Shown one piece after another: positions 20,896 through 56,700 of a stretch of 64,000 bases of DNA (the stretch's first letter is position 1; every line of letters begins with the position of its first letter). A model generated the notes under the pieces. It saw only the letters and a program-made list of their open reading frames with translations, was not told the origin of the DNA and did not search any database. The stretch lies in NCBI RefSeq assembly GCF_964213995.1, contig NC_135822.1, positions 1,240,001 through 1,304,000 on the forward strand, read 5' to 3'. A program made the translations under genes and the position numbers. This DNA is from Mustelus asterias. Taxonomy: Eukaryota.

Positions 20896-21106
20896 TCATA
20901 TTGTGTGAAAGGCATTCGGAGCTGACACTGTACAGCAGTTGTTGGATGTTAACAATAGTCACTAGTTAGCTGATGAAGATATTTCCAGCTCTTTATGTAA
21001 AGTAATGAGGTTTCTTCACGTTTATACCATATTCAGTGAGAGCAGGAATTAAATCCTCCATGGTGAGGGTGTACTTTTTGTCCTAAAAACAACAGAATGC
21101 ATTTAA
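20896..21106 (-). pseudogene. TAF10: Duplicate of the TAF10 terminal exon (acceptor, 90-nt CDS at 20993-21082, 97 nt of 3' UTR)
   Basis: 211 bp with no visible mismatch to 22404-22614 (offset 1508 bp). Confidence 0.9.
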
Positions 21107-21345: not shown

Positions 21346-22500
21346 GTAAGAATTGGACATTTATAGAATGGAGGAATCTTTCTTAATTCAAGACTGCAAA
21401 TCAAAGTAAATTTGCAGTTGTGACTAAACATTTTTAAATGTAATAAGCCCTTACTCCTAAAAGGAGCAAAACCACTCACTCACTGAACTCATATAAAGGT
21501 TCCCGAAAGCTGTCAGAAATGCTATGGTAAAACAGATAGAGAATCCAAGGCAGTTAAAAGACAAATCTAATGGTTACCTGAACTTATAGAAAATGATAGA
21601 AATTAAACTTCTAAGCTTTAAAAAAGTGAGACCAATTTAAACAAAGATTAGATCAACTAATTTCATTTAAAAGATCCCAATTTTAAAGAAATGGTAATTA
21701 TTTGGTGGACCTTGTTTTAGAGAATCAGATATAACCGAGTAGAACAAGTTTAAATCCATACACCTGTTCTGATCAATAATCTGAAGCTGCAGTTTCAAAT
21801 TAAATAATAAACTTTAAGCAAGAACTTCAAATGATCTTATTCTCTCATGGGCCTAACTTTTTTTCCTTCCAGGTTAGTTTAAATGAGCTGGAATATCTGA
21901 TGTTAAAGAAAAGCAGAAGCTGGCTTGGAATTTTTTCCAAATACAAGGGAAGGTTGGCTAATTTCTCCTCAAAGAAAATAAGTTCACTACACTTTTGTTT
22001 TTAAAACAAGAACAGATTTACAATTTGAAATGCACCATATGAAAAGCATGCAACTCCACTTGAAAATAATGTGGCTATCCTCTTACTGGCTGCTAACCCT
22101 AGCTTGCTACATTTGAAAAACTATTATACAGAACATTTCCTAAAGGTGATAATTTTCCAGCTTAAGTTCTAACTGATCCTGAACAGGTTTACAGAAATGA
22201 GACAATATCTTCAAAACCCATTGTATACAGATCAAAAATTTTTTTCAAACCTATCATCACAAGTAATAATTCAAAAGGAAATGCGAGAATCAGTGAATAA
22301 TGAAGCCCTCCAAACGATGATCAAATGTTGGATGCAGATTCGGAACCACTTTCGAGCTCGTCAAATCGGAAAACTCAACTTGTGGCATATTTCTTTTCCA
22401 CCATCATATTGTGTGAAAGGCATTCGGAGCTGACACTGTACAGCAGTTGTTGGATGTTAACAATAGTCACTAGTTAGCTGATGAAGATATTTCCAGCTCT

Positions 22501-22590
22501 TTATGTAAAGTAATGAGGTTTCTTCACGTTTATACCATATTCAGTGAGAGCAGGAATTAAATCCTCCATGGTGAGGGTGTACTTTTTGTC
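22501..22590 (-). CDS. TAF10: TAF10 exon 5
   Basis: ttttag|DKKYTLTMEDLIPALTEYGINVKKPHYFT*. Confidence 0.93.
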   Translation of the reverse strand, partial: DKKYTLTMEDLIPALTEYGINVKKPHYFT

Positions 22591-25500
22591 CTAAAAACAA
22601 CAGAATGCATTTAAACAATGACATTGAAAGCAGAAAGTAACAGCTTAGAATACATATCTCCAAGTCCAAATTTCAACCATCTACAAATAAAAAATACTTG
22701 GATGTTTTTTCTTTCACTTGCTCCGTTAAGACCAGACAAAATAGAAACTAATTCTGGGAACCAAAAGATATCTTCAAGGGGATATTGAAAACATTTTGGA
22801 ATGGACAAAAGTGGCAGTTAATGGAACTCAACAACTGCCATTGTGGAGTGGTTATATTATCAGTTCATGGTTAGTTAGCTCAGTTGGCTAGATATTTAGT
22901 GTGTGGTTCAGAATAACACCAATAGAGCAGGTTTGATACCTCAGCTGCAATGAGAAGACTTGGACCTGCCTCTTCACCAACCCCGAGAGTGGAAGGCAAT
23001 GGCAAACCATTGCTGATAAAACCCACAAAGGGAACAGCTCAGGCTGAAGCATTAATAGACAATGAGTCAAGGACCTGCCTTCAGGCTGAGCACACTAGTG
23101 TGAAATGATTCATTTTGGTAGGAAGAACATAGACTATATAAAATAATGAGCAGAGTTCTGATGGGAGTGCAGGAGCAGAGTGCGTGCAAATATGCAGAAA
23201 TCAATGAAGGTGACAGGACAGGTTGAAACTGTGGGTAAAGTACACATATCCTTCTTGAGTTTTTTGCCCAAAGGCAGGTCCTTGGTGATTATTTACTGAA
23301 GTGTAGCAAGCACCACAACTTTTACTATGGGTAGGGCAAGGCGGCCCAGTATCTACCTCAACTGGAATGGGAATCTAACCCAGTGCTGTTGGCATGAATC
23401 CAATCTGCATTCTAGCCCACCGAGCTAAAGGAAAACCTAGGCTTGATTTAGTGCAGCATAAAGTATGTTAAAGTTGCACAGAACACTGGTTCAGCCTATC
23501 TTGGGTCTGGGTGACATACTTGTGATCAATGACATCTGTCTGATTTCCCTCCTGTTTTAGGATGCTTTGTACCTGCTCATAGACATTATACTGGAGTCCC
23601 TTTCGCAGCCACAGAAGCACCTATCTGTGCACCTGACTATTGAATCTCCTGCCACTATTGCTTTGGCCACTGCTGTTGCTGTCCCCTGATGGATATTCCT
23701 CATCAGTATCCAAAACGACATACTTGTCAGATAAGGGGACAACCATAGAAGACCTCTGCACTGGCTGCCTACTCCATCTGGCGATCACCCATCTATCTTC
23801 CTGCACCGAAGGATGTGGGTGAGATCCTTAATGAATACTTTGCATTGGTATTCACAAAGGAGAGGGACATGTTGATTGATGGAGTTTCGGAGGGATATGT
23901 AAACCCTCTAGAGCAAGTCATTACGAGGGACAAAGTGTTAGGTGAATTAAAAGGCATTAAGGTAGACAAATCCCCAGAACCAGATGGCATCTATCCCAGA
24001 TTACTGAGGGAGACAAGCGAGGAAATTGCTGGGCCTCTAACAGAAATCTTTGTTTCCTCGTTGGCCACTGGTGAGGTCAGTAAGAAGTCTTACAACACCA
24101 GGTTAAACACTGGTGAGGTCCCAGAGGATTGGAGGATAGCCAATGTTGTCCCTTTATTTAAGAAGGGTAGCAAGGATAACCTGGGTCATTATAGGCCAGT
24201 GAGCTTGATATCAGTGATAGTGAAATTGTTGGAGAAGATTCTTAGAGATAGGATCTATGCACATTTGGAACTGAATGGTCTTATTAGCGACAGACAACAT
24301 GGTTTTGTATGAGGGAGGTCATGTCTCACTAATTTAATTGAGTTTTTTCAGGTGACAAAAATGATTGATGAGGGAAGGGCTGTGGATGTTGTCTACCTGG
24401 ACTTTAGTAAAGCATTTGGCAAGGTCCCTCATGGCAGGTTGGTGCAAAAGGATAAATCACACGAGATCAAGGGTGAACTAGCTAGATGGATTCAGAACTG
24501 GCTTGGCCATAGAAGACAGAGGGTAGCGGTGGAAGGGTGTTTTTCTGAATGGAGGTCTGTAACTAGTGGTGTTCCACAGGGATCAGTGCTGGGACCTCAT
24601 ATATATATATAAAAAATATATTATATATAAAAATGACTTGGAACAAAAAACGTAGCTGGTTTGATTAGCAAGTTTGCGGATGATACTAAGACCGCTGGAG
24701 TTGCAGATAGTGATGCAGATTGTCAGGGAATACAGCAGGATATAGACAGGCTGGAAAATTGGACGGAGAAATGGCAGATGGAATTTAATCTGGACAAATG
24801 AGAGGTAGATTCAATTCAGGTGGGAGCTATAAAATAAATGGCAGAACCATCAGGAGCATAGACACACAGAGAGATCTGGGAGTACAGGTCCACAGGTCCA
24901 TAAAAGTGGTAGCACAGGTGGAAAAGGTGGTGAAGAAAGCATATGGCATGCTTGCCTTCATCGGATGGGGCATCGAATATAAAGTTGGCAAATTATGTTA
25001 CAGTTGTATAAAACATTGGTGAGGCCACATTTGGAATACTGTGTCCAATTCTGGTCACCACACTACCAGAAGGATGTGGAAGCTTTGGAGAGAGTACAGA
25101 AAAGGTTTAGCAGGATGTTGCCTGGTATGGAGGGTATTAGCTATGAGGAGAGATTGAATAAACTGGGGTTGTTCTCCCTGGAAAGACGGAGGCTGAGGGG
25201 CGACCTGAAAGAAGGTTATAAAAGTATGAGGGACATAGACAGAGTGAACAGTTGGAAGCTTTTCCCCAGGGCAGAAATGACAATTACAAGGGGCCACAAG
25301 TTCAAGGTAAGGGGGGAAAGGTTCAATATAGAAGTGCGGGGGGGAGCTTTTTTTTCCAGGCCCCCACCACCCTCACAGAGGGTGGTGGGGCCTGGAATGC
25401 ATTGGCAAATGAGGTGGTTGAGGCAGTTGCGTGAGCGACATTTAAGACTAATCTGGATAGGCACGGGAAATAGAGGGATACAGGCTGTTGGTCCAGATAG

Positions 25501-28500
25501 GAAAACATGATTGGCATAGGCTTGGAGGGCCGAAGGGCCTGTTCCTGTGTTGTACTGTTCTTTGCTCTATTGGTGGTCGAGGGAAAGGACAAGGGAAAAG
25601 GGCAGGTCTGTGTCATTAGGATATCGGTCCTGTGAAAGATAAACACCAAAGTAAACTAGTTGGACCATGCACCATATTTCCATGTTTTTTTTTTCTTGAG
25701 ACTAGCCCAAGTCATCATAATTTCAACCTAACATTAGAACTCCTGACATTTGCAAAGCCCATTCGTTGCAAAATTAGTTTGTGTTTATATTAAGTGCTGA
25801 AAACTTCTAACAAGAACAGAAATGTTTTACGAAAGTGAGCTTGTCTCGCCAAAAGAATAGCAGAGTAAACAGAATCCATAGAATCACAGAATCCCTACAG
25901 TGCAGAAGGAGGCCATTCAGCCCATCAAGTCTGCACCAACCATAATCTCACCCAGGCCCTATCCCCATGCATTTACACTCGCTCTTCCCCTTGACACTAA
26001 AGGCAATTTAGCATGGCCAATCCACCTAACTGCTCGTTTTTGGAGTGAGAGAGGAAACCGGAGCACCCGGAGGAAACCCACGCAGACACTGGGAGAACGT
26101 GCAAACCCCACACAGACAGTGACCCAAGCTGGAAATCGAACCCTGGCACTGTGAGGCGGCAGCGCTAACCACTGTGCTACCATGCTGCCAAACTGACAAA
26201 TGCAAATTCAGACCCAATTATTTCTTTGAATTTTTCATGGAGTAGAAGCAGAATAATTTTCTAAACTAAATCGCGAGGTGACAGTTTTACAACTTTGCAC
26301 AAAGTGCCCTTCATCAATGATTTTCAGAAGTAGAGATAAGAATTGTGCCTTCTATTCTTGGTTTGGCGACGAAAGTCTTTCTGCAGGTGCTTCACAATGA
26401 ATGTAACAATGATGCTATGCTTCAAACAGTGAGAACCAACCTTGCTTTTGTTTCTGGAACTTCCTGATGCCGTTCCCTTCATTTTACAGTGCTGCAAGGC
26501 ATCATTTGCAATATCTGAAATGAACTTTTGTGCAGCCAAAGATATTAAACGAATTCTGTATAAAAAACACAATACAGTCAAAAGCCCGATTTAACAGTAA
26601 CTCAGTAGTTTGCATTGATCCAGTTCTATTTCACAGGAAGTAGATGTTAATTCTTCAAAGATTATAGAAGGTTTTCTCATTGAAATTACAGTTTGTCTAG
26701 TTCCATGAAATTAGTATGTTTCCATATTGCAGACTTTAAAAAAAAATAACTTTGTGGTGGATCTACTGGGGGCATCTACAAATTCTAGCAATTACAATCT
26801 CCATCTGACAAATAAACATCTCTTATTCTGTCCAATTACAAAGTGGCTTACCGAGGTGGAAGACATTTCTTGAACACACACTGCTGCAAGTATATTTGCG
26901 ACAGCTGGGACCAACAGGAGATAGATACATATGCATTTATTTAAATGAATAGCAAAGTGAAACACACGCTACATCATAGATGCTTGTAAAATTGAACATT
27001 TCTCATGGCAGAAACTATGTAAATTGACATTATTACACAAACCAGAATGGATGGAAGGCAAAACATTAACATACATTCGAGGATCCGAAGCCTCAAAGCC
27101 TGCTCGATTCAGATAATATCCTGTCACAGCATCTGGTATCTAAAACGTACAGAAGATGAGAGATAAGAACTCAATGCTACATTTAAAATCATTGAAATAT
27201 GTATTCACATCATTAAGATATTTAACAAATACTTTCATCATCAGCTGTCCTCGCAGTACCTACCCTGACAAGCTCTCCAAAAACATTTTGTTTCAATGAG
27301 ATCATTTTGCATTCTTCTAAATATGCAAGATTCCATCTACTCCAACCAATGGGCTGAATGGCCTCTTTCTGTGTTGTGTATCCTATGTAATCCTAATTAA
27401 TGTAATTCCATCTATTTTTGATGAAGGATCACATCTGAAATAATATATTTCCCTCTCAAGTCTAGAACAACCTGCTGGGCATTTCCAAAATTGTGTGGGC
27501 TCATTGTTCATAAATTTGACTTTAAATTTCTAAATATTGCAGGTCCCATCTGCAGAAGCTAATTCTTAAACTATATATTGATCAGAATTCTGTTTTCATC
27601 TGGCCACCCACTCCCTCCAATCTAAAATCAACTCCATTTTGGGCCAATCTCCAAGTCTACAAAGCTCTGCTGAGAGTTGAAACAGGCCATTTAATCATTG
27701 GAAACCATGTCAGTTTAAATGTCATACTAATAACATTGTTCTTACACTGCAGCTAATTATAATTTAAAGCATTGTCTATTTGGTTAACTGATAAGCAAGC
27801 TGAAAATATGGAAAGTCAATCATAACTGTACACTTAAACATTGTTTCTAAGAATGAACTTGAATTATTAAAACAAGATAAATGAACTTACTGTCGGTGTA
27901 TAATCCTCTAATTGCATTAGGAAGTCTGCCAGTGGTGTTGTTGATATGACAGGTTTGACATCACCATTGGCAATCCCTTGAGGAACATAGACACCATTTG
28001 AAATGGAAGTTTCTGCTGCAGAGGCAGCAGCAGCTGGAACTGAAAGTACACAAGAAAAGATATTATGAACAAATTGGAACAGAATTATAATTGTTTATAT
28101 ATAGTTTTTACAATTCAGCAAGAATATATGTTTCTATTTTAATTTAACATTTTGATGTTATATATAAACATAGTCATAGTGTCATAGAGGTTTACAGCAT
28201 GGAAACAGGCCCTTCGGCCCAACTTGTCCATGCTGCCCTTTTTTTTTAAAGCAAGTCCCAATTGCCCACATTTGGCCCATATCCCTCTATACCCATCGTA
28301 CCCATGTAACTATCTAAATGCTTTTTAAAAGACAAAATTGTACCCGCCTCTACTAATACCTCTCGCAGCTTGTTCCAGACACTCACCATTCTGTGAGAAA
28401 AAATTGTCCCTCCGGACACTTTTGTATCTCTCCCCTCTCACCTTAAACCTATGCCCTCTAGTTTTAGAGTCCCCTACCTTTGGGAAAAGATATTGACTAT

Positions 28501-29401
28501 CTAGCTGATCTGCGCCTCTCATTATTTTATAGACCTCTATAATATCACCCCTCAGCCTCCTATGCTCCAGAGAAAAAAGTCCCAGTTTATCCAGCCTCTC
28601 CTTATAACTCAATCCATCAAATCCCAGTAGCATCCTAGTAAATCTTTTCTGCACTCTTTCTAGTTTAATAATATCCTTTCTATAATAGGATGATCAGAAT
28701 TGCACAGTATTCCAAGTGTGGCCTTACCAATGTCTTGTACAACTTCAACAAGACGTCCCAACTCCTGTATTCAACATCCTTATTCTTTCATTGGATCACA
28801 ATTGATAGAGACATACAGATTAAGGTAATTGTAAAATCTGTATTGCCTTTTACAAACTCTTTGGAGCAAATTCAGTAAAATCGAATAATGTGGATCTCTG
28901 TTTACCATCACACCAACATTCACACTGTCAGTGTTTCCCAAACTGACCAGTACTAAAAACACTGGGGCAGTGCCCGAGAGTGAGTAATTAGAAGCGAAAG
29001 AATCGGATATCCACAAACTAATACTTCAGTAGGTATGTTTGTACTGACACAAGACTAAGTGACATGATACAAGATAGTCCTGAATACACAAGTAATTTGT
29101 TTAATTGCATTTGATATTTACTGAGAAATCTCAACTATCATTTGTAAAACCAAAATGCTGAGAGTCTGAAACACAAACAGTAAATGCTGCACAGACTGGG
29201 CAGTTGTGGAGACAGAGTTAGTGTTCCCATCCTGAGTGACTTTCCACCAGTCTGTCCCGCTCCTGGGATTATCCACCGCTCTCCCCGCAGGGACTGTCCC
29301 CCGCCCCGGACCCCGCACCCACCGCTCCCCGGCGCCCCGCTCCCGGTCGCAGCCGCGGTGGCCCCGGCCGCCAGGCTCAGCTGCGGGTTCTCCGAGTTCA
29401 T
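22501..29401 (-). CDS. TAF10: TATA-box binding protein associated factor 10 (TFIID/SAGA subunit), 5 coding exons, 165 aa
   Basis: Exons 29401-29323, 28039-27891, 27139-27075, 26555-26441 and 22590-22501 are all GT-AG and phase-consistent (498 nt). They encode [64 protein letters not shown]...YTLTMEDL.PALTEYGINVKKPHYFT. Confidence 0.96.
23555..23808 (-). mobile_element. CR1 ORF1 fragment (SGNH esterase region)
   Basis: AIVAGDSIVR.TDR.FCG.ERDS motif typical of the CR1 ORF1 esterase. Confidence 0.7.
23809..25565 (+). mobile_element. CR1 LINE ORF2 RT region and 3' tail
   Basis: [71 protein letters not shown]. Frameshifted. Confidence 0.95.
24079..24107 (-). mobile_element. Penelope-like (family A) 29-bp micro-insertion inside a CR1
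   Basis: agtaagaagtcttacaacaccaggttaaa with a perfect 13-bp TSD CACTGGTGAGGTC (24066-24078, 24108-24120). Confidence 0.85.
25877..26189 (-). mobile_element. V-SINE (HE1-like), near full length
   Basis: tRNA-like head ggcagcatggtagcacagtggttagc...ggttcgatt, V core, CR1-type tail. Confidence 0.9.
26441..26555 (-). CDS. TAF10: TAF10 exon 4
   Basis: tacag|..[38 protein letters not shown]|gttggt. Confidence 0.96.
27075..27139 (-). CDS. TAF10: TAF10 exon 3
   Basis: tttag|[21 protein letters not shown]..|gtatgt. Confidence 0.96.
27891..28039 (-). CDS. TAF10: TAF10 exon 2
   Basis: tttcag|..[39 protein letters not shown]|gtaagt. Confidence 0.93.
28168..28775 (-). mobile_element. CR1 3' fragment (same subfamily as 39683-40134 and 54934-55897)
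   Basis: [28 protein letters not shown] and a CR1 tail. Confidence 0.92.
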
Positions 29402-33387: not shown

Positions 33388-33828
33388 TCCATTAAACTGA
33401 GCATTGACAGCCATGCCATCAACTATATCTGCACTAGATTCTAGAGCTTCTTCCTTAAACTCCATGGCCAGTTTTTCTACCTTGAAGGCCCCTTCTTAAA
33501 ACCAACCTCAACCTCTTTGATCAAGCTTTTTGATAACTCTGCTAATAGGTTTAGCATCTAATCTTAAAATTCTGTTTGTGAAGCATTTGGAGGGCATTTC
33601 TCTACATTAATGATACAATATCATTGCAACTTGTTCTCTGGCTAAATGGTTATAATTACTTCCCTGATTATCCACTCATTGAAGGTTACATGTTGTAGAT
33701 ACATTCCAGATTGTTTTCCTGTGTCTCTCATCCCAGATGTGGAGATGCCGGCGTTGGACTGGGGTGAACACAGTAAGAGTTTTAAGAACACCAGGTTAAA
33801 GTCCAACAGGTTTATTTGGTAGCAAATA

Positions 33829-33865
33829 CCATTAGCTTTCGGAGCGCTGCTCCTTCGTCAGATGG
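33829..33865 (-). ncRNA. Minimal type I hammerhead ribozyme (PLE terminal repeat)
   Basis: Reverse complement of the motif at 35367-35403. Confidence 0.7.
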
Positions 33866-35366
33866 AGTGGAAATGTGCTCTCAAACAGGGCACAGTGACA
33901 CAAAATCAAGTTACAGCATACTGATTAGAATGCGAATCCCTACAGCCAACCAGATCTTAAAGATACAGACAATGTGGGTGGAGGGAGCATTAAGCACAGG
34001 TTAAAGAGATGTGTATTGTCTCCAGGCAGGATAGCCCGCAAGTCCAGGAGGCAAGCTGTGGGGGTTACTGATAATGTGACATAAATCCAACATCCCGGTT
34101 TAGGCCGTCCTCACGTGTGCGGAACTTGGCTATCAGTTTCTGCTCAGCAACTCTGCGCTGTCGTGTGTCGTGAAGGCCGCCTTGGAGAACACTTACCTGA
34201 AGATCAGAGGCTGAATGCCCGTGACTGCTGAAGTGCTCCCCCACAGGAAGAGAACAGTCTTGCCTGGTGATTGTCGAGCGGTGTTCATTCATCCGTTGTC
34301 GTAGCGTCTGCATGGTTTCCCCAATGTACCATGCCTCGGGACATCCTTTCCTGCAGCGTATCAGGTAGACAACGTTGGCCGAGTTGCAAGAGTAGTACCG
34401 TGTACCTGGTAGATGGTGTTCTCACATGGGATGATGGCATCCGTGTTGATGAATCCGTGTCAGTTCCGACGCGCCACAGCGAAAAACCGCACTGACCTCC
34501 TCAGAAGACAAACACGGGACACGGTGGACAGAGTACCCTTCGTCGTCCAGTACTTCCCCGGAGTGGAGAAGCTACGGCATCTCCTTCGGAGCCTTCAAGA
34601 TGTCATTGATGAAGACGAACATCTTGCCAAGGCCATCCCCACACCTCCACTTCTTGCCTTCAAACAACCGCGCAACCTCAAACAGACCATTGTCCGCAGC
34701 AAACTACCCAGCCTTCAGGAGAACAGTGACCACGACACCATACAACCCTGCCATAGCAACCTCTGCAAGACGTGCGAATCATCGACACGGATGCCATCAT
34801 CTCACGTGAGAACACCATCTACCAGGTACACGGTACCTACTCTTGCAACTCGGCCAACGTTGTCTACCCGATTCGCTGCAGGAAAGGATGTCCCGAGGCA
34901 TGGTACATTGGGGAAACCATGCAGACGCTTCGACAACGGATGAATGAACACCGCTCGACAATCACCAGGCAAGACTGTTCTCTTCCTGTGGGGGAGCACT
35001 TCAGCAGTCACGGGCATTCGGCCTCTGACCTTCGGGTAAGCCTTCTCCAAGGCGGCCTTCATGACACACGACAGCGCAGAGTTGCTGAGCAGAAACTGAT
35101 AGCCAAGTTCCGCACACGTGAGGACGGCCTAAACCGAGATGTTGGATTTATGTCACATTATCAGTAACCCCCACAGCTTGCCTCCTGGACTTGCGGGCTA
35201 TCCTGTCTGGAGACAATACACATCTCTTTAACCTGTGCTTAATGCTCCCTCCACCCACATTGTCTGTATCTTTAAGACCTGGTTGGCTGTCGGGATTCGC
35301 ATTCTAATCAGTATTCTGTAACTTGATTTTGTGTCTCTGTGCCCTGTTTGTGAGCAGATTTCCACT

Positions 35367-35403
35367 CCATCTGACGAAGGAGCAGCGCTCCGAAAGCTAA
35401 TGG
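35367..35403 (+). ncRNA. Minimal type I hammerhead ribozyme (PLE terminal repeat)
   Basis: CCAT-CTGACGA-a-GGAGC agc GCTCC-GAAA-GC-TA-ATGG: core CUGANGA/GAAA, stem II, palindromic AGCU stem III, stem I CCAU/AUGG. Confidence 0.72.
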
Positions 35404-35489
35404 TATTTGCTACCAAATAAACCTGTTGGACTTTAACCTGGTGTTGTTAAAACTCTTCCTCTCTCAGCCCATCCATGCCTTAGTCCAGG

Positions 35490-35704: not shown

Positions 35705-38700
35705 GTAAGCGGCTGAGGGGCGGCGGCGGAGCTTCTGGAAATTTGGCGCGGATTTACCGAGAGAAACGGTGCTGCTGTCTGGATTAGTCAATTGAGCAGG
35801 CCCCGGCTCTGTGATTGGCTGCTGCCGGCAGCCCCGGCTCTGTGATTGGTTGCTGCCGGCAGCCCCGGCTTTCTGATTGGCTGCTGCCTGCAGCCCCGGC
35901 TCTCTGATTGGCTGCCGCCCTGGCCTCCCGATTTCTGATTGGCTGCTACCCTCAGCCCCGGTTCTGATTGGTTCGAATCTATGATGCGCAGCCAGCATGG
36001 TTGGAGCAGTCCAGGAAACCATTCGGACCCTCGTGTCTGTGCTAGCTCCCTCAGCTCATCCCATTCGCCTTTCTCTGTAGCCCATGAGAGATTTTTACCC
36101 TCAGATCATTATTGAATCCTCTTTTGAAACCCACAATTGAGTTTCTCTCCAGCTCCCTCTTGGGCAACGCATTCGGCACTCTTACCACTCTCCCAGCAGA
36201 ACTGTACTCAACCCCAATCTGTAGCCTCTTGGCCCGCATATCCCCTATCTTACCATTACCCCCCAAACCACGGGGATCAATGGAGAGTGTGGAAGGGAAT
36301 GCAAGGAGCAGCACCAAGCATGCCTAAAAACGAGGTGTCAACCTGGTGAAGCTACACCACAGGACTACTTGCATGGCAAATGGCAAAAACAGCAAGTGAT
36401 AGACAGAGCTAAGCAATCCCACAACCAACAGATCGGATCTAAGCTCTGCCGTTCACATCCAAATGGTGGTGGACAATTAAACAATTCATTGGAGGAGGAG
36501 GCTCCACAAATATCCCCATCCTCAATGATGGAGGAGCTCAGCACATAAGTCTAAATCATGAGGCTGAAACATTCACAACAATCCTCAACCAGAAGTGCTG
36601 GATGGATGATCCACCTCAGCCTCCTCCAAAGGACCCCAACATAGACGAATGAGGGAGGGTCTCATAGAGACTTATAAAATTCTAACAGGACTAGACAGGG
36701 TAGATGCAAGGAGGATGTTCCCGATGGTGGGGGAGTCCAGAACCAGGGGTCACAGTCTGAGGATTCAGGGTAGACCATTTAGAATGAAGGTGAGGAGACA
36801 TTTTTTCACCCAAAGAGTGGTGAGCCTGTGGAACTCATTACCACAGGAAGTAGTTGATGCCAAAACATTGAATGTATTCAAGAGGCGGCTGGATATAGCA
36901 CTTGGGGCAAATGGGACCAAAGGTTATGGGGAAAAAGCAGGATTAGGCTATTGAGTTGGATGATTATCCATGATCGTAATGAATGGCGGAGCAGGCTCGA
37001 AGGGCCAAATGGCCTCCTATCTTTTATGTTCCTGCCACAGAGTCAGTCTTCAGTCAATTTGATTCATAGAATCCCTACGATGCAGAGGAGGCCAATTAGC
37101 TCATGGAGTCTACACCGACTCTCCAAAAGAGCATCTTACCCAGGCCCACCTCTCCGCCCTATCCCCATAACCCCATGCATTTACCACGGCTAATCCCCCT
37201 AACCTACACATCCTTGGACTCTTAAGGGGCAATTTAGCATGACCAATCCACCTAACCTGCACATCTTTGGAGTGGGAGGCAATCAGAGGAAACCCACGCA
37301 GAGATGGGGAGAATGTGCAAACTACACACAGACAGACCCAAGGCCAGAATTGAACCCAGGTCCCTGGCGCTGTGAGGCAGTGAACATAAAGCTGGACAAT
37401 TACAACCCGGCCAATTACCGCCCAATCAGTCTACTCTCGATCATCAGTAAAGTGATGGAAGGGGTTGTCAACAGTGCAATCAAATGGCACTTGCTCAGCA
37501 ATAACCTGCTCACTGATGCTCAGTTTGGGTTCTGCCAGAGCCATTCAGCTCCTTATCTCATTACATTCTTGCTTCAAACATGGCCAAAAGAGCTAAATTC
37601 CAGAGGTGAGGTGAGAGTGACTGCCCTTGTCAACAAGGTCGCATTTGACCGAGTGTGGCATCAAGAAACATTGGCAAACTGGAGTCAGTGGGAATCGGGG
37701 GAAAACTGGGATTTGTGTTGGGTCCCCTATTATTTGTCATTTTACATAAACAACATTGATGACAATGTGAGAGGTAGGATTAGTAACTTTGCGGATGACA
37801 CAAAGATTGGCCAGGTGGTTAACATTGAGGCGGAGTGTCTTGGGCTAAAAGAAGATATAGACAGACTGGGCAGATAAATGGCAGATGGAATTTAACCTGA
37901 AAAGTGTGAGGTAATACACTTTGGAAGGAGTAATTTAACGAGGAAGTATTCAATGAATGTCATGACACTCAGAAGTTCTGTGGAACAAAGGGATCTTGGC
38001 GCTTTTATCTACAGATCTCTGAAAGCGGGAGGGCATGTTAGTAGGGTGGTGAAAAAGGCATATGGGACATTTGCTTTTATCAATTGAGGCATAGATTACA
38101 AAAGCAGGGAAGTAATGTTGGCGTTATATAGAACTTTGGTGAGGCCACAGCTAGAGCACTGTGTGCAGTTCCGGTCGCCATATTATAGGAAGGATGTGAT
38201 TGCACTGGAGGGGGTGCAGAGGAGATTCACCAGGATGCTGCCTGTGATGGAGCATTTAAATTACGAAGAGAGGTTGGGTAGGCTTGGGTTGTTTTCATTG
38301 AAGCAGAGAAGACTGAGGGGGCAACCTGATTGAGGTGTACAAGATTATGAGGGACATGGACAGGGTGGATAGGGAGCAGCTGTTCCCCTTAGTTGAAGGG
38401 CGAGACACGAGGAGACATAGGGGTAAGAGGTTTAGGAGGGATGTGAGGAAAAACCTTTTTACCCAGTTGGTGTTGACGGTCTGGAATGCACTGCCTGGGA
38501 GGGTGGGTAGAGGCGGGTTGCCTCACAACCTGGATGAGCACTTGGCATGTTATAACATTCAAGGCTATGGGCCAATTGGAAACCTCTAGCACATGATGTC
38601 AATTACAATGTAATACATCAGTGCTTTGCTATTGACACTGATTGGCCTCTGATCAATGGATGTCCCCCAGTCAAACCAGTGTAATTTAGCATGAGACATT

Positions 38701-41700
38701 GGAAAGAGGTACTCTTCTTACTGATCAAGTGAATGCCTCATCAAGTGTTTGTCCAGCTGGAAGACATAGAAACATAGAAAACTACAGCACAAAACAAGCC
38801 CTTTGGCCCCACAAGTTGTGCCGAACATATCCCTACCTTTTAGGCCTACCTATAACCCTCCATCCTGTTAAGTCCCACGTACTCATCCAGGAGTCTCTTA
38901 AAAGACCCTATTGAGTTTGCCTCCACCACCACTGACGGCAGCCGATTCCACTCGCCCACTACCCTCTGTGAAAAACTTCCCCCTAACATTTCCCCTGTAC
39001 CTACCCCCCAGCACCTTAAGCCTGTGTCCTCTCGCAGCAGCCATTTCCACCCTGGGAAAAAGCCTCTGAGAGTCCACCCGATCTATGCCTCTCAACATCT
39101 TATACACCTCTATTAGGTCTCCTCTCATCCTACGTCTCTCCAAGGAGAAAAGACCGAGCTCCCTCAGCCTATCCTCATAAGGCATGCCACTCAATCCAGG
39201 CAACATCCTTGTAAATCTCCTCTGCACTCTTTCAATCTTTTCCACATCCTTCCTGTAATGAGGCAACCAGAACTGAGCACAGTACTCCAAGTGGGGTCTG
39301 ATGAGGGTCTTATATAGCTGTATCATTATCCCCAGACTCCTAAACTCAATCCCTCGATTGATAAAGGCCAGCACACCATACGCCTTCTTAACCACCAATA
39401 TACCGATAAAAAATTTGATGGGAAAGCATTCTTTTAGAATTCTGATTATGTAACTCTCCAGAGAAATAAGCTTGCAAAGTGAAAGCAACATAGATTGTTT
39501 CCCATTCTGTACATATTGGGTATGGTTAATTTTGCTGTTGTGTTGTTGAACAGTATTATTCTATAATTCCACTGAGCATGGAAAGGATAACTGATCTGGC
39601 TTTCGTGCATGATCCAGCAGTCCAGAATGGTACAAATCTGATTGATGTAGAAAGAATCTACCTTCTGCCATAGTCAATTATATGATGGTTTGAGTTATGG
39701 GGGGAGGCTGGATGGACTGGGACTTTTTTCTCTGGAGCGTAGAGGGCTGAGGGGTGAACTTGTTGAGGTCTATAGAATGATGAGGAGCATAGATCAGCTA
39801 GATAGTCAATATCTTTTCCCAGAGGTAGGGGAGTCTGGGACTAGAGGGCACAGGTTTAAGGTGAGAGGGGAGAGATACAAAAGTGTCCAGGGGGGCAATT
39901 TCTTTCACACAGAGTGTGGTGAGTGTCTGGAACAAGCTGCCGGAGGTAGTAGTGGAGGCGGGTACAATTTTGTCTTTTGGAAAGCATTTGGACAGTTACA
40001 TGGGTAAATGGGTATGGAGGGATATGGGCCAAATGCGGGCAATTTGGACTAGCTTCAGGATTTAAAAAAAAAGGGTGGCATGGACAAGTTGGGCCGAAGG
40101 GCCTGTTTCCATGCTGTAAACCTCTATGACTCTAAGTGCTGGTAAATGGGATGCGGTGGGAGTTCAGGTGTTTCTCGCGTGCTGGTGAGGACCCGATGTG
40201 CCGATGTGTACTGTATGATTCTATGGTTGGAGTCATACCGAGCACAAAGGAAGATGGTTGTCCTATCAGTCATATCAGTTCAAGGGCATCACTACAGGAG
40301 TTCTTCAGGCCCAGCTATCTTCAGCTGCTTCATCAGTGATCTTCCTCCCATCATAAGGTCAGAAGTCAGGATTTTTGCTGATGATTGCACAATGTTCAGC
40401 ACCATTCACTACTCAGATGCTGAAGCAGTCCATGTCCAAATGCAGCAAGACCTGAACGATGTTCAAGTTTGGGCTGATAAGTGGCAAGTAATATTCACGC
40501 CACACAAGTGCCAGGCAATGACCATCATCAACAAGAGAGAATCTAACCATCGCCTCTTTGACATTCGGTGGCATGGATGAGTGCAGCTCCAACAATACAC
40601 AAGAAGTTAACATCATTTGGGACAAAGCTGCCCGCTTGATTGGCATCATGCACTCTCTCCACCACCGACACACAGTGGCAGTGTGTACCATCTACAAAAT
40701 GCACTGTAGGAACTCGCCAAGGCTCCTTAGACAACACCTTCCAAACCCACGACTCGATCGCTGTGGAACCAGCCGTGTTGGCTCCATGAGGCCCTGCCTC
40801 AACAGAGAGACAGCGCAAAACATGCTCTGAGGTGTTACTTGTGTCAAGAGCCAGAAAACCTGGTCTGAAAACTTGGCTGTGTTTCTGGAGAGACAGACGC
40901 TGGTTTTCAGTCAGCACCTGACGGTCTGGATGGAATTTTACCAAACGTTTGTTAACGTGCTGATTGTAAAATCCTCATCCTTGTTTCCCAATTCCTCAAT
41001 GGCCCTGTTTCTGTTATCAGGGTAAATTAGTGGGGTTACGAGGATAGGGCCTGGATGGGATTGTTGTCGGTGCAGGCTCGATGGACCGAATGTCCTCCAT
41101 CTGTACTGTAGGGGTTCTATGATTCTAAGGTAACTGTTTTTCTCTTTAGAAGGCAGGGGTAATATAAATTCATCTGTTATGAATCAATTTCAAGTCACAG
41201 TTTTCAATCTGTGGTGTGTGGAGTGATACAGAAACCTGTGTGGTGATTTCTGTATTTTTTTGATCTGGCTAGGGGATTATTTCAGTTTTATGTAAATTGT
41301 TTTATAAGAAAAACTCTGATCAAATAATATTCCCAGACTCTGGGAGCAGTTATGTGACTGGGTTACTTAGCAGTAGGAACACTTCACCTCAGCTGCTTGA
41401 CAGGCACTCTGCTGGAAAGGAGAGGAGGATAGAAAATGGATGAAAGTCTCCGGTGTGGAGCCGAACCAGGCACCATTTTAAAAACATTTCTTTCATGGTT
41501 GCTCCTAATTCCTGGGATGGAGTTTGTCTTTACCCCTTGCACCTCCTTCAGGATCTCCTTGTCTTTGGGCAGTTGGGGAATAAGTCTATATGGCAAGATA
41601 GTGAGAATCTATCATATTTATAGAAGATGCCTGATAGCAATAATGTAATTCTGAAAGATGTGTTGGTTAGGGTGCATTGACCCGAGTAGGCGCCGGACTG

Positions 41701-53700: not shown

Positions 53701-56700
53701 ACTGTGGGAGGAAACCGGAGCACCCGGCGGAAACCCACGCAGACACAAGGAGAATGTGCAAACTCCACACAGACAGTGACCCAAGCCGGGAATCGAACCC
53801 AGGGCCCTGGAGCTGTGAAGCAGCAGTGCTAACCACTGTGCTACCGTGCCGCCGTCAGACACATAATCCAAAATTAAAACGATCCCAATCCAAAGAACTG
53901 GATTTTAAGGAAGGTCTCAAAAGAGATAAGGAGGGTGAAGAGGCAGAGGAATTTCAGGAAGACATCCACGTCCTTTCTTGTATTTATGTTTTATTTCCTG
54001 TATTTTCCTCTTTTTGTTCTGTTAAGTTTTAAATGCTGTTCATCTGTAAGTTTTTCCAGTTCTGATAAAGCTTTGTAAACAAATTGCTAACTCTGCTTTC
54101 TGTACAGTTTTTTTTTTGTTTTAATATTATTGTGTTTGATGTATATTCAAATACATTATAGCAATAGTTAAAGTTAATTACAGGAGTGTCTATTTCTGTG
54201 ACTGTAGTGCCTTGGTTCCATTGGTTTACTGCAACAGAGCTTTCTATTTTTCAGGGTAATCAAGGACTTTATGATACAAGGGGGAGACTTTGTGAATGTA
54301 AGTAAAGTAATGTCAGTGTCAGTCAGCTTGTAACACTGACAATTCAGGAGATAGGGGGAAAGCTGTTTGGCTAGGTGGGGGTGGCAGAGATGGGAAGACA
54401 TGTGATGAAACCCCCAAGCATAAGTTGAATAACAGTTGGAAATCCTCTGCATTGAGCTGTCACCCAAAGCTGCATCCAACCTTTGTGCCCCACAGGAATC
54501 ACTGCCCTCACATGGCAGTGTGTGACGTGGATTCAGATCCTCCTTAATCGGGTAATGGGTGGAATGTGCAGGGTGAAAAGTGCAATTCAAATGCAGGCTA
54601 TGTTCTGTGGCAGTTGGAGCTGAGTTGAGCGTTGTTGTGGGTGGGTGATGGGATAGAACTCTCGCCCTCCATCAGAGTTCTAGAATTTAGCTGCGGGGAC
54701 TGAAATACACATTGCAGCAAAGCAGCAAGATTTCAAAACTCCCAGTGATGTGGAGAGCTGGGCAGACATAATTGGACCCCCACTCCCCATCCCCCATCCC
54801 AAGAAGTACAGAAGGAGCTTGGTCTATTTTGAGGACTGGGCCTCCTTCTCCTCCACTGCTAGGTTTTACTTTGTCCACGACAGATCCTCCAGCCAGTACG
54901 CTGTCAAAATTGTATTCGATCCCAACTCCCATTTAGAGTCATAGAGGTTTACAGCATGGAAACAGGCCCTTCGGCCCAATTTGTCCATGCCGCCCTTTTT
55001 TTTAAACCTCCAAGCTAATCCCAATTGCCCACATTTGGCCCATATCCGTCTATACCCATCGCACCCATGTAACTATCTAAATGTTTTTTAAAAGACAAAA
55101 TTGTACCTGCCTCTACTACTACCTCTGGCAGCTTGTTTCAGACACTCACCACCCTCTGTGTGAAAAAATTGCCCCTCTGGACATTTTTGTATCTCTCCCC
55201 TCTCACCTTAAACCTATGCCCTCTAGTTTTGGACTCCCCAACCCTTGGGAAAAGATATTGACTATCTAGCTGATCTGTGCCTCTCATTATTTTATAGACC
55301 TCTATAAGATCACCCCTCAGCTTCCTACGCTCCAGAGAAAAAAGTCCGAGTCTATTCAGCCTCTCCTTATAACTCAAACCACCAAATCCCGGTAGCGCCC
55401 TAGTAAATCTTTTCTGCACTCTTTCTAGTTTAATAATATCCTTTCTATAATAGGGTGACCAGAACTGCACACAGTATTCCAAGTGTGGCCTTACCAATGT
55501 CTTGTACAACTTCAACAAGATGTCCCAACTCCCGTATTTAATGTTCTGACCGATGAAACCAAGTATGCCGAATGCCTTCTTCACCACTCTGTCCACATGT
55601 GACTCCACTTTCAAGGAGCTATGAACATGTACCCCTAGATCTCTTTGTTCTGTAACTCTCCCCAATGCTCTACCATTAACTGAGTAAGTCCTGCCCTGGT
55701 TTAATCTACCAAAATGCATCACCTCTCATTTGTCTTAATTAAACTCCATCTGCCATTCGTCAGCCCACTGGCCCAATTGATCAAGATTCCATTGCAATTG
55801 GAGATAACTTTCTTCACTGTCCACAATGTTACCAATCTTGGTGTCATCTGCAAACTCACTAACCATGCCCCCTATATTCTCATCCAAATCATTAATATGC
55901 CTGAATTTAAGATATTCCTGCCTGATTCTGGTGGATGCATGGTTCCCGACAATAACACTGGAGAGGATTTGGTGCAAAACAATATCGGAAGCCTGTTACT
56001 ATAATTCCTAGCTATGTCATTGCTTGGTTTCTTTTGATGAAGAGCGTTTCCTCCTCCCACCCCACCCCCACAAAATTCAAATAAGAATGTGTTCCCACAT
56101 TATTGTATAAATCACCAAGTGAGCAGGCTGGAAATGTTAAGACCTCAGGCTGATGGTAGTGGAATGGGAGGAGAAAGCCAGTAAGGCACAGTCTCCTACC
56201 AGCACCACATGGAAATCATAGGGGTGAGCATTATATCATAGAATCCCTACAGTGCAGAGGAAGGCTATTCGGCCAATCGAGTCTGCACCAACCACAATCC
56301 CACCCAGGCCCTATTCCCATAACCCCACATATTTACCCTGCTAATCCCCCTGACGCTAAGGTCAATTTAGCATGGTCAATCGACCTAACCTGCACATCTT
56401 TGGACACCACAGATTGAATTGCCTTTGTTTCAAAAATGCTACAGCGTAATTACAAGGTTAGTAATAGTTTACACACCTTTAAATGCGTCAGCATGAAACT
56501 TGTTGCCCAGTTTGAGTGAACCTTTGAGTTTTGGGTATTCGTAACCATTATGAGGGAGCAGCTGTTCTTCAATTTGAACAAACCAGAAGAAACGGGATTT
56601 AATATCGGTCATAGATGCACCCAATCCCTTACCTCTTTTATTGTTAAGTATTCTTCAAATATCTTATGGAAGTGAGCATTATATAGGTATATGACAGTTC

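Follow-up and report, generated by a model that had tools for sequence, protein, structure and literature searches.

A-to-G hypermutated LINE copies in the genome of Mustelus asterias as a probable DNA record of ADAR-edited RNA

A 5'-truncated LINE copy with 19 sense-strand A-to-G changes was found in a window of 64,000 nucleotides of Mustelus asterias DNA (contig NC_135822.1, positions 1,240,001 to 1,304,000 of the forward strand), and the changes were likely (with a probability of roughly 85%) made by ADAR on double-stranded RNA and then fixed in DNA by LINE reverse transcription. ADAR deaminates adenosine in long duplexes, with 5' U or A preferred and 5' G depleted (PMC4365171, PMC5663115, PMC8586724), and reverse transcriptase reads the resulting inosine as G (PMC5224506). 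This mechanism is well supported at the level of the LINE family, and is the likely one for the copy in the window. The family, which we take to be CR1, as did the first-pass annotation of the window, encodes a reverse transcriptase (RVT_1 above the cut-off in two frames of a longer sister copy, L009). The hypermutated copy, its parts and two sister copies, all in window coordinates, are as follows.

39683..40134, plus strand: 5'-truncated 3' end of a young non-LTR (CR1-type) retrotransposon, with the end of the ORF, the 3' UTR and a short tandem tail
39699..40016, plus strand: A-to-G hypermutated span, with 19/96 adenines changed in 318 bp, 16 of the 19 after T or A
40017..40134, plus strand: unedited 3' end and tail, with 0/31 adenines changed in the last 118 bases
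28172..28774, minus strand: unedited sister copy, A>G 2/181 and T>C 0/154
54934..55898, minus strand: unedited sister copy, A>G 7/283 and T>C 2/248

The first-pass annotation had read about 18 sense A>G changes in about 340 bp from a comparison with sister copies at 28168-28620 and 54934-55380. Both sisters exist, but on the minus strand, and they extend further than had been described (28172-28774 and 54934-55898). Where the two sisters agree, 20 A>G changes face 11 other substitutions, which bears out the claim that A>G outnumbers the other private changes; all seven of the clustered motifs quoted are present in the sequence, and the open frame of the copy gives SYGGR, YRMM and SGTRGH at the residues said to be broken. 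The copy is 91-92% identical to its nearest genomic copies. As a reference, the majority base of the 29 nearest genomic copies was taken column by column, wherever agreement was at least 75%, the copies being drawn from 40 scored out of 9877 candidates; since the 29 copies were picked by likeness to the copy under study, the test is conservative. Against this majority, 19/130 A sites are G, all within 318 bp, and the remaining changes consist of one T>C, two G>A, one C>T and three transversions, against a background in the 29 copies of, on average, 1.9 A>G and 7.6 changes of other kinds per copy. The excess, whose significance against the family majority had been left to be established, is strong (binomial p 1.1e-8; Poisson p 3.5e-13), and it holds after correction for 1e5 copies; the asymmetry between A>G and T>C has a p of 7e-5. 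An APOBEC-type excess of sense G-to-A was not found in the copy (2 G>A vs 19 A>G), and a plus-strand A>G excess is absent from the flanking older repeats (5 of 26 changes over 40190-40760 and 1 of 7 over 40950-41200).

The sequence context of the changes is skewed on both sides. Adenines were changed at 9/28 sites preceded by T, 7/25 preceded by A, 1/17 preceded by C and 2/26 preceded by G, that is, at 16/53 sites after T or A vs 3/43 after C or G (p 0.005), and the earlier statement that most of the altered adenines follow T or A is correct for 16 of the 19. On the 3' side, the changed fractions are 9/25 before A, 9/43 before G, 0/10 before C and 1/18 before T, so that 18 of the 19 changed adenines precede a purine (p 0.010). 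This purine bias differs from the 3' G enrichment reported for ADAR in the cited descriptions, as G alone gives a p of 0.80.

One alternative to editing is inheritance, in which the G alleles would mark a rare subfamily or would be ancestral and lost by the other copies. Sites 39703, 39891 and 39954 are indeed also G in four to seven of 31 other copies, and the scoring took in 40 of 9877 candidates; a few single G sites may be inherited, although inheritance of the set as a whole is contradicted by the genome-wide counts. The unedited form of a family 22-mer has 19,618 genomic occurrences, which sets the family size at 19,618 copies at least, whereas the GG version has 15 and the mirror CC version has 3. 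The 14 other copies with the GG allele have 2-10 A>G each and do not carry the rest of the G set. Furthermore, two full-length relatives of the same sub-lineage, recognized by common private 3' alleles, have A at 19/19 sites. Given these unedited relatives and the count of 15 vs 19,618, the G set is not a subfamily; shared G alleles in many copies had been named beforehand as the finding that would overturn the editing interpretation, and no subfamily was found to carry the set. Inheritance of the G alleles is thus scarcely credible as the explanation.

The changes are probably not an artefact of assembly or sequencing, as might arise, for example, from edited RNA reads leaking into polishing. 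A contig from sequencing run X15 (39653-39730) spans the unique flank and the first 4 of the 19 sites with 0 differences, all four being G, and its depth of 22.6 vs 20.9 in the flank is that of a single-copy region; to this extent, the check in raw DNA reads proposed in the first-pass annotation came out in favor of G. This outside support covers 4/19 sites and comes from one run, of unrecorded library type and possibly from the assembly's own sample, so that it may not be independent. Run X17 covers the flank only, and runs X1 and X20 have no coverage of the unique flank. Trace data are known to contain systematic clusters of mismatches, those described being of the G-to-A type (PMC2873906). 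On the other hand, the flank-anchored contig carries the G alleles at single-copy depth, the same pattern is found at twelve loci over many chromosomes, and a transcribed hairpin source described below shows no editing in 5/5 assembled copies, whereas its dispersed retrocopies carry the changes. With these observations, an artefact is highly improbable.

The edited copy is part of a larger insertion, the remaining parts of which, in window coordinates, are the following.

38300..38574, plus strand: left half of an older CR1-type element, matching an intact copy as far as L072:3466
38575..38768, plus strand: 5' part of a captured unique sequence, a copy of G000:C9:99551913-99551720, 97.4% identical, with no A>G
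38769..39397, minus strand: inverted element of a second CR1-type family, which interrupts the captured piece and is unedited
39398..39682, plus strand: 3' part of the captured sequence, a copy of G000:C9:99551724-99551431, 92.5% identical, with no A>G
40134..40226, plus strand: right half of the same older element, which resumes at L072:3466 with a one-base overlap

Since the older element breaks off at 38574 and picks up again at 40134 from the base of the intact copy where it had stopped, 38575-40134 was inserted as one block, and 5' truncation, an intact 3' tandem tail and a single insertion into a continuous target are all present there. The inserted unit is therefore 1.56 kb long and chimeric, and not the 452-bp LINE copy for which it had been taken. 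The 3' part of the captured sequence is fused bluntly to the 5' end of the LINE, the C9 match stops exactly where the LINE begins, and the sequence of 39398..39682 is present at two genomic places only, the window and C9. Among the 149 adenines of the captured 479 bases, none has changed to G. The capture of these bases fits a template switch, and it also fits a now-missing C9 allele that held the LINE. A source for the edited copy was absent among the 40 candidates scored out of 9877, among 7 other hits of its private-3'-allele pattern, and among the 4 long family copies present in the 330 kb of sequence that surround the C9 donor; its duplex partner was not found either in these comparisons. 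The captured stretch (39398-39682; G000:C9:99551431-99551913) is itself exon-like, with AG and GT ends and a frame open on the LINE strand; its 50 residues match no Pfam family, and the best match to a solved structure has an E value of 1.4.

The inverted neighbor at 38769..39397 raises the question of whether the changes were made in place, after insertion, by a transcript that pairs the copy with 38769-39397, is edited and templates repair, or by the action of ADAR on an RNA:DNA hybrid. The neighbor and the edited copy match at 63% over 39686-40028, a stretch nearly equal to the changed span of 39699-40016, and RNA of the present-day locus is predicted to be paired with the neighboring arm at 261/348 bases. 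A change without retrocopying is also suggested by L097, a hypermutated copy that has no evident tail on its edited strand. However, the two arms agree at no more than 63%, and the facing arm is essentially unchanged, with 2/81 adenines changed vs 19/96 in the edited copy (p 0.0003); compared with four sisters and counted on the plus strand, 38769..39397 shows two A>G, two T>C and eight C>T or G>A. Sparing of the tail is also found in L049, which has no such neighbor in the 3 kb fetched around it, and the copies that could be matched to a source were edited before insertion. In-place change is unlikely on this evidence, and editing of the RNA before insertion is the preferred reading.

The first-pass annotation had proposed that strand-specific A>G clusters be sought in other copies, and pattern searches of the genome yielded 11 more. 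Two sense patterns were used, each requiring at least 3/6 A>G and each giving 11 hits, and A>G was scored outside the pattern. For the first pattern, 7/11 hits are hypermutated outside the pattern, with T>C of 0-1 each: L049 (40/120 A>G), L051 (36/111), L052 (28/111), L053 (14/28), L054 (48/105), L055 (64/120) and the copy in the window (16/120). The second pattern returned 4/11 hits that repeat those of the first, and 5 of its 7 new hits are clear, namely L093 (85/177), L092 (25/55), L089 (15/60), L086 (16/36) and, by pairwise comparison, L090 (55 A>G vs 4 T>C). In total, 12 clear loci, including 39683..40134, derive from at most 10 sources. L050, L056, L057 and L058 among the hits of the first pattern, as well as L046-L048 and L096, were judged to be chance hits, and L044 (13/122, with 18 transversions), L085 (19/128, with 7 T>C) and L091 (12/287) were regarded as uncertain and left uncounted. 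From the overlap of the two sense searches, a rough estimate is about 10-20 hypermutated copies among at least 20,000. In an unselected sample consisting of the window and 230 kb of C9, one of six family copies is hypermutated, and this is 39683..40134 itself.

The neighbor preference recurs in the other copies. In a pool of 10 copies, which includes the uncertain L085 and L091, the rates of change by 5' neighbor are 0.64 for T, 0.48 for A, 0.32 for C and 0.19 for G (G depletion p 1e-17), and those by 3' neighbor are 0.51 for A, 0.45 for G, 0.35 for C and 0.25 for T. The sites changed in the window copy agree with those in seven other edited copies overall (p 0.003), but not within sites preceded by T or A (p 0.19), so the concordance adds nothing beyond context. 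The last ~95 bases are spared in L049 (1/23) and changed in L055 (8/23) and L093 (8/21). L093 (85/177) and L055 (81/302) are the most heavily changed copies, and both were edited into the 3' tail and still inserted; the changes of L055 are confined to its 3' half.

For three of the hypermutated copies, the source could be identified. L051, L052 and L054 have a common LINE-SINE junction and common marks other than A>G, and the junction pattern is found at 9 genomic places, L051, L052, L054, L060 and L064-L068. The last five (G000:C180, C274, C277, C477 and C574, all small contigs) are 99.3-99.9% identical over a unit of at least 20 kb, which holds a LINE-SINE chimera with inverted arms just downstream and is unedited in 5/5 copies. 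The inverted arms are 94.5% and 90.6% identical, and are predicted to be paired at 192/200 and 149/162 bases, vs 9/143 in the tail. L060 is a short unedited retrocopy of the unit, identical at 226/226 positions. L051, L052 and L054 are each on a chromosome of their own, differ in 5' end and in flanks, and all end at the internal tail. In these three retrocopies, 44/126, 36/111 and 58/107 adenines of the stem were changed (138/344), whereas outside the stem the changes number 1/110, 0/59 and 0/28 (1/197; p 1.4e-31 vs the stem). Other changes amount to 3 in one copy, 5 in another, every one of them at the edge of the alignment, and 0 in the third, and L063 has none. L052 was changed in the nearer stem only. 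Confinement of A>G to the predicted RNA duplex in this source-retrocopy set supports the interpretation of the changes as RNA editing given in the first-pass annotation, and the three copies were edited before insertion. Each pair of them has common sites that are absent from the third, and these non-nested sets indicate that the three copies record separate molecules. ADAR favors A opposite C, and A opposite C in the stem was changed at 13/17 positions vs 120/254 for paired A (p 0.024). In the three source-matched copies, the rate after 5' G (0.38) is above that after 5' C (0.25). At the adjacent source positions 1243-1244, L051 shows A>T in contrast to the A>G of L054, possibly through misreading of inosine or a later change. 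A CpG-rich stretch is present in the unit at C180:521000-526000. The unit was also considered as rDNA, a possibility that was discarded after 0 Rfam hits in the 60 kb scanned.

Error-prone synthesis of the second DNA strand, by DNA polymerase eta or from a skewed nucleotide pool, could also place G opposite template T during insertion. Polymerase eta prefers A after A or T. Second-strand synthesis would give the same polarity as that observed, and the enzyme has been described as tending to insert dGTP opposite template T, which produces A-to-G (PMC13716900). However, the changes in the three retrocopies stop at the edges of the RNA duplex (138/344 vs 1/197), and a DNA polymerase would be blind to whether an A lies opposite C in the RNA stem, where changes are favored. 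In addition, the captured 479 bases of the same insert in the window have 0 A>G, and about half of all A were changed in L063 with no other change. A polymerase origin is very unlikely in view of these features, and editing of RNA remains the preferred source of the changes.

In the proposed mechanism, a read-through or host transcript that carries LINE pieces in inverted orientation would fold into a duplex, in which ADAR may hyper-edit adenines to inosine. LINE reverse transcriptase could then prime at the LINE or SINE 3' tail and read inosine as G. For 39683..40134, reverse transcription may have begun in the unedited tail and run through 452 bases before continuing into the 479 bases of C9 sequence, and the chimeric product would have split the older element in one event, which could have taken place in the germ line or the early embryo. 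The first-pass annotation had supposed that a hyperedited LINE transcript was retrotransposed; retrotransposition of a hyperedited transcript is supported, but the template was probably not an active LINE mRNA. For the three source-matched copies, the edited template was read-through or host RNA with inverted LINE pieces, and a template of the same kind is likely for 39683..40134. Both the identity of the enzyme as ADAR and the germline timing are inferred. The adenosine deaminase family PF02137, a match that does not distinguish ADAR from ADAD or ADAT, is present at several loci of the genome. More generally, it seems probable, though with less confidence than for the 19 changes themselves, that ADAR hyper-edits germline transcripts with inverted LINE pieces, which LINE reverse transcriptase, primed at internal tails, then copies into chromosomes time and again, that the L064-L068 hairpin recently gave at least three independently edited retrocopies and one unedited one, each a record of a single molecule, and that ADAR acts as a heritable, strand-specific mutagen of, roughly, one family copy per one to two thousand.

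Several known systems resemble parts of this mechanism. ADAR hyper-editing of inverted repeats (PMC4365171, PMC5663115) is alike in its dense A-to-G clusters and 5' preference; the sites described there exist in RNA only, whereas those in the shark copies lie in genomic DNA where new insertions occurred. Retroviral hyperediting in RAV-1, avian leukosis virus and HTLV-2/STLV-3 (reviewed in PMC8586724) likewise leaves A-to-G after reverse transcription, but the cases reviewed are exogenous viruses in infected cells, in contrast to non-LTR retrocopies in a vertebrate assembly with an unedited source for three of them. In APOBEC-edited retroelements (PMC4866542, PMC3880073, PMC2873906), deaminase footprints were also fixed in single copies and found against the subfamily majority; the footprint is G-to-A from deamination of C in cDNA, unlike the A-to-G here. 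The survey in PMC4866542 is described as filtering for G-to-A and not for A-to-G, and the main text of PMC3880073 has no mention of ADAR or A-to-G. Restriction of LINE-1 by ADAR1 was reported to be independent of editing, in a human cell assay with no edit in more than 2.5 kb of L1 RNA, in a study that also mentions edited pairs of truncated LINEs within 3' UTRs (PMC5224506); ADAR acts on LINE biology in that system as well, but here, unlike there, the edited RNA was apparently retrotransposed. Chimeric U6/L1 and LINE-mRNA retrocopies (PMC4476161, PMC6789731, 10.1101/2025.02.02.635956) similarly have non-LINE sequence fused 5' of a truncated LINE end, whereas in the window intron-like DNA of unique sequence makes up the 5' part, and the LINE part is hypermutated. 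By these accounts, dense editing of inverted repeats in RNA, retroviral A-to-G and APOBEC G-to-A in retroelements are already known. No publication on ADAR-type A-to-G fixed in genomic LINE copies was found among the titles and opening lines of abstracts searched, a coverage that leaves out most subscription journals.

RNA editing is generally taken to leave DNA untouched, and surveys of retroelements for deaminase footprints looked for APOBEC G-to-A. An unedited source hairpin and edited retrocopies in one assembly tie together RNA structure, editing and heritable change, and such copies preserve in DNA which germline RNAs had formed duplexes and been edited. They further indicate that LINE reverse transcriptase is able to copy RNA in which roughly half of the adenines are inosine, and L064-L068 is a named locus where editing and retrotransposition can be tested today. 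Hypermutated copies also appear older than their true age. For 39683..40134 itself, no function in the organism is proposed.

Hypermutation of the opposite polarity exists but is rarer than sense A>G; two mirror patterns gave 0 and 3 hits, of which 2/3 are T>C-rich. One of these, L097:662-1825 (G000:C75:5304551-5305714), has T>C at 31/278 and A>G at 1/302 sites, lacks a tail of its own, has an internal deletion and shows no 5' neighbor bias on the other strand, and it is not explained by simple retrocopying of sense RNA. The other, L095:1485-1642, consists of two short T>C-rich pieces (8/25 and 11/16) that are antisense and lie upstream of an unedited tailed copy, which fits an edited antisense passenger, although 0/122 sites are changed in the facing sense arm. 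Other repeats were encountered in the course of the comparisons. L011 and L019 on G000:C8, 4.5 kb apart, have flanks that are 99.7% identical over 2685 bases and represent a recent tandem duplication. The window holds a perfect direct repeat of 211 bases (20896-21106 and 22404-22614) and an inverted repeat of 702 bases (33755-34455 and 34776-35475), the arms of which are 95.9% alike and about 320 bases apart, making it a candidate editing substrate.
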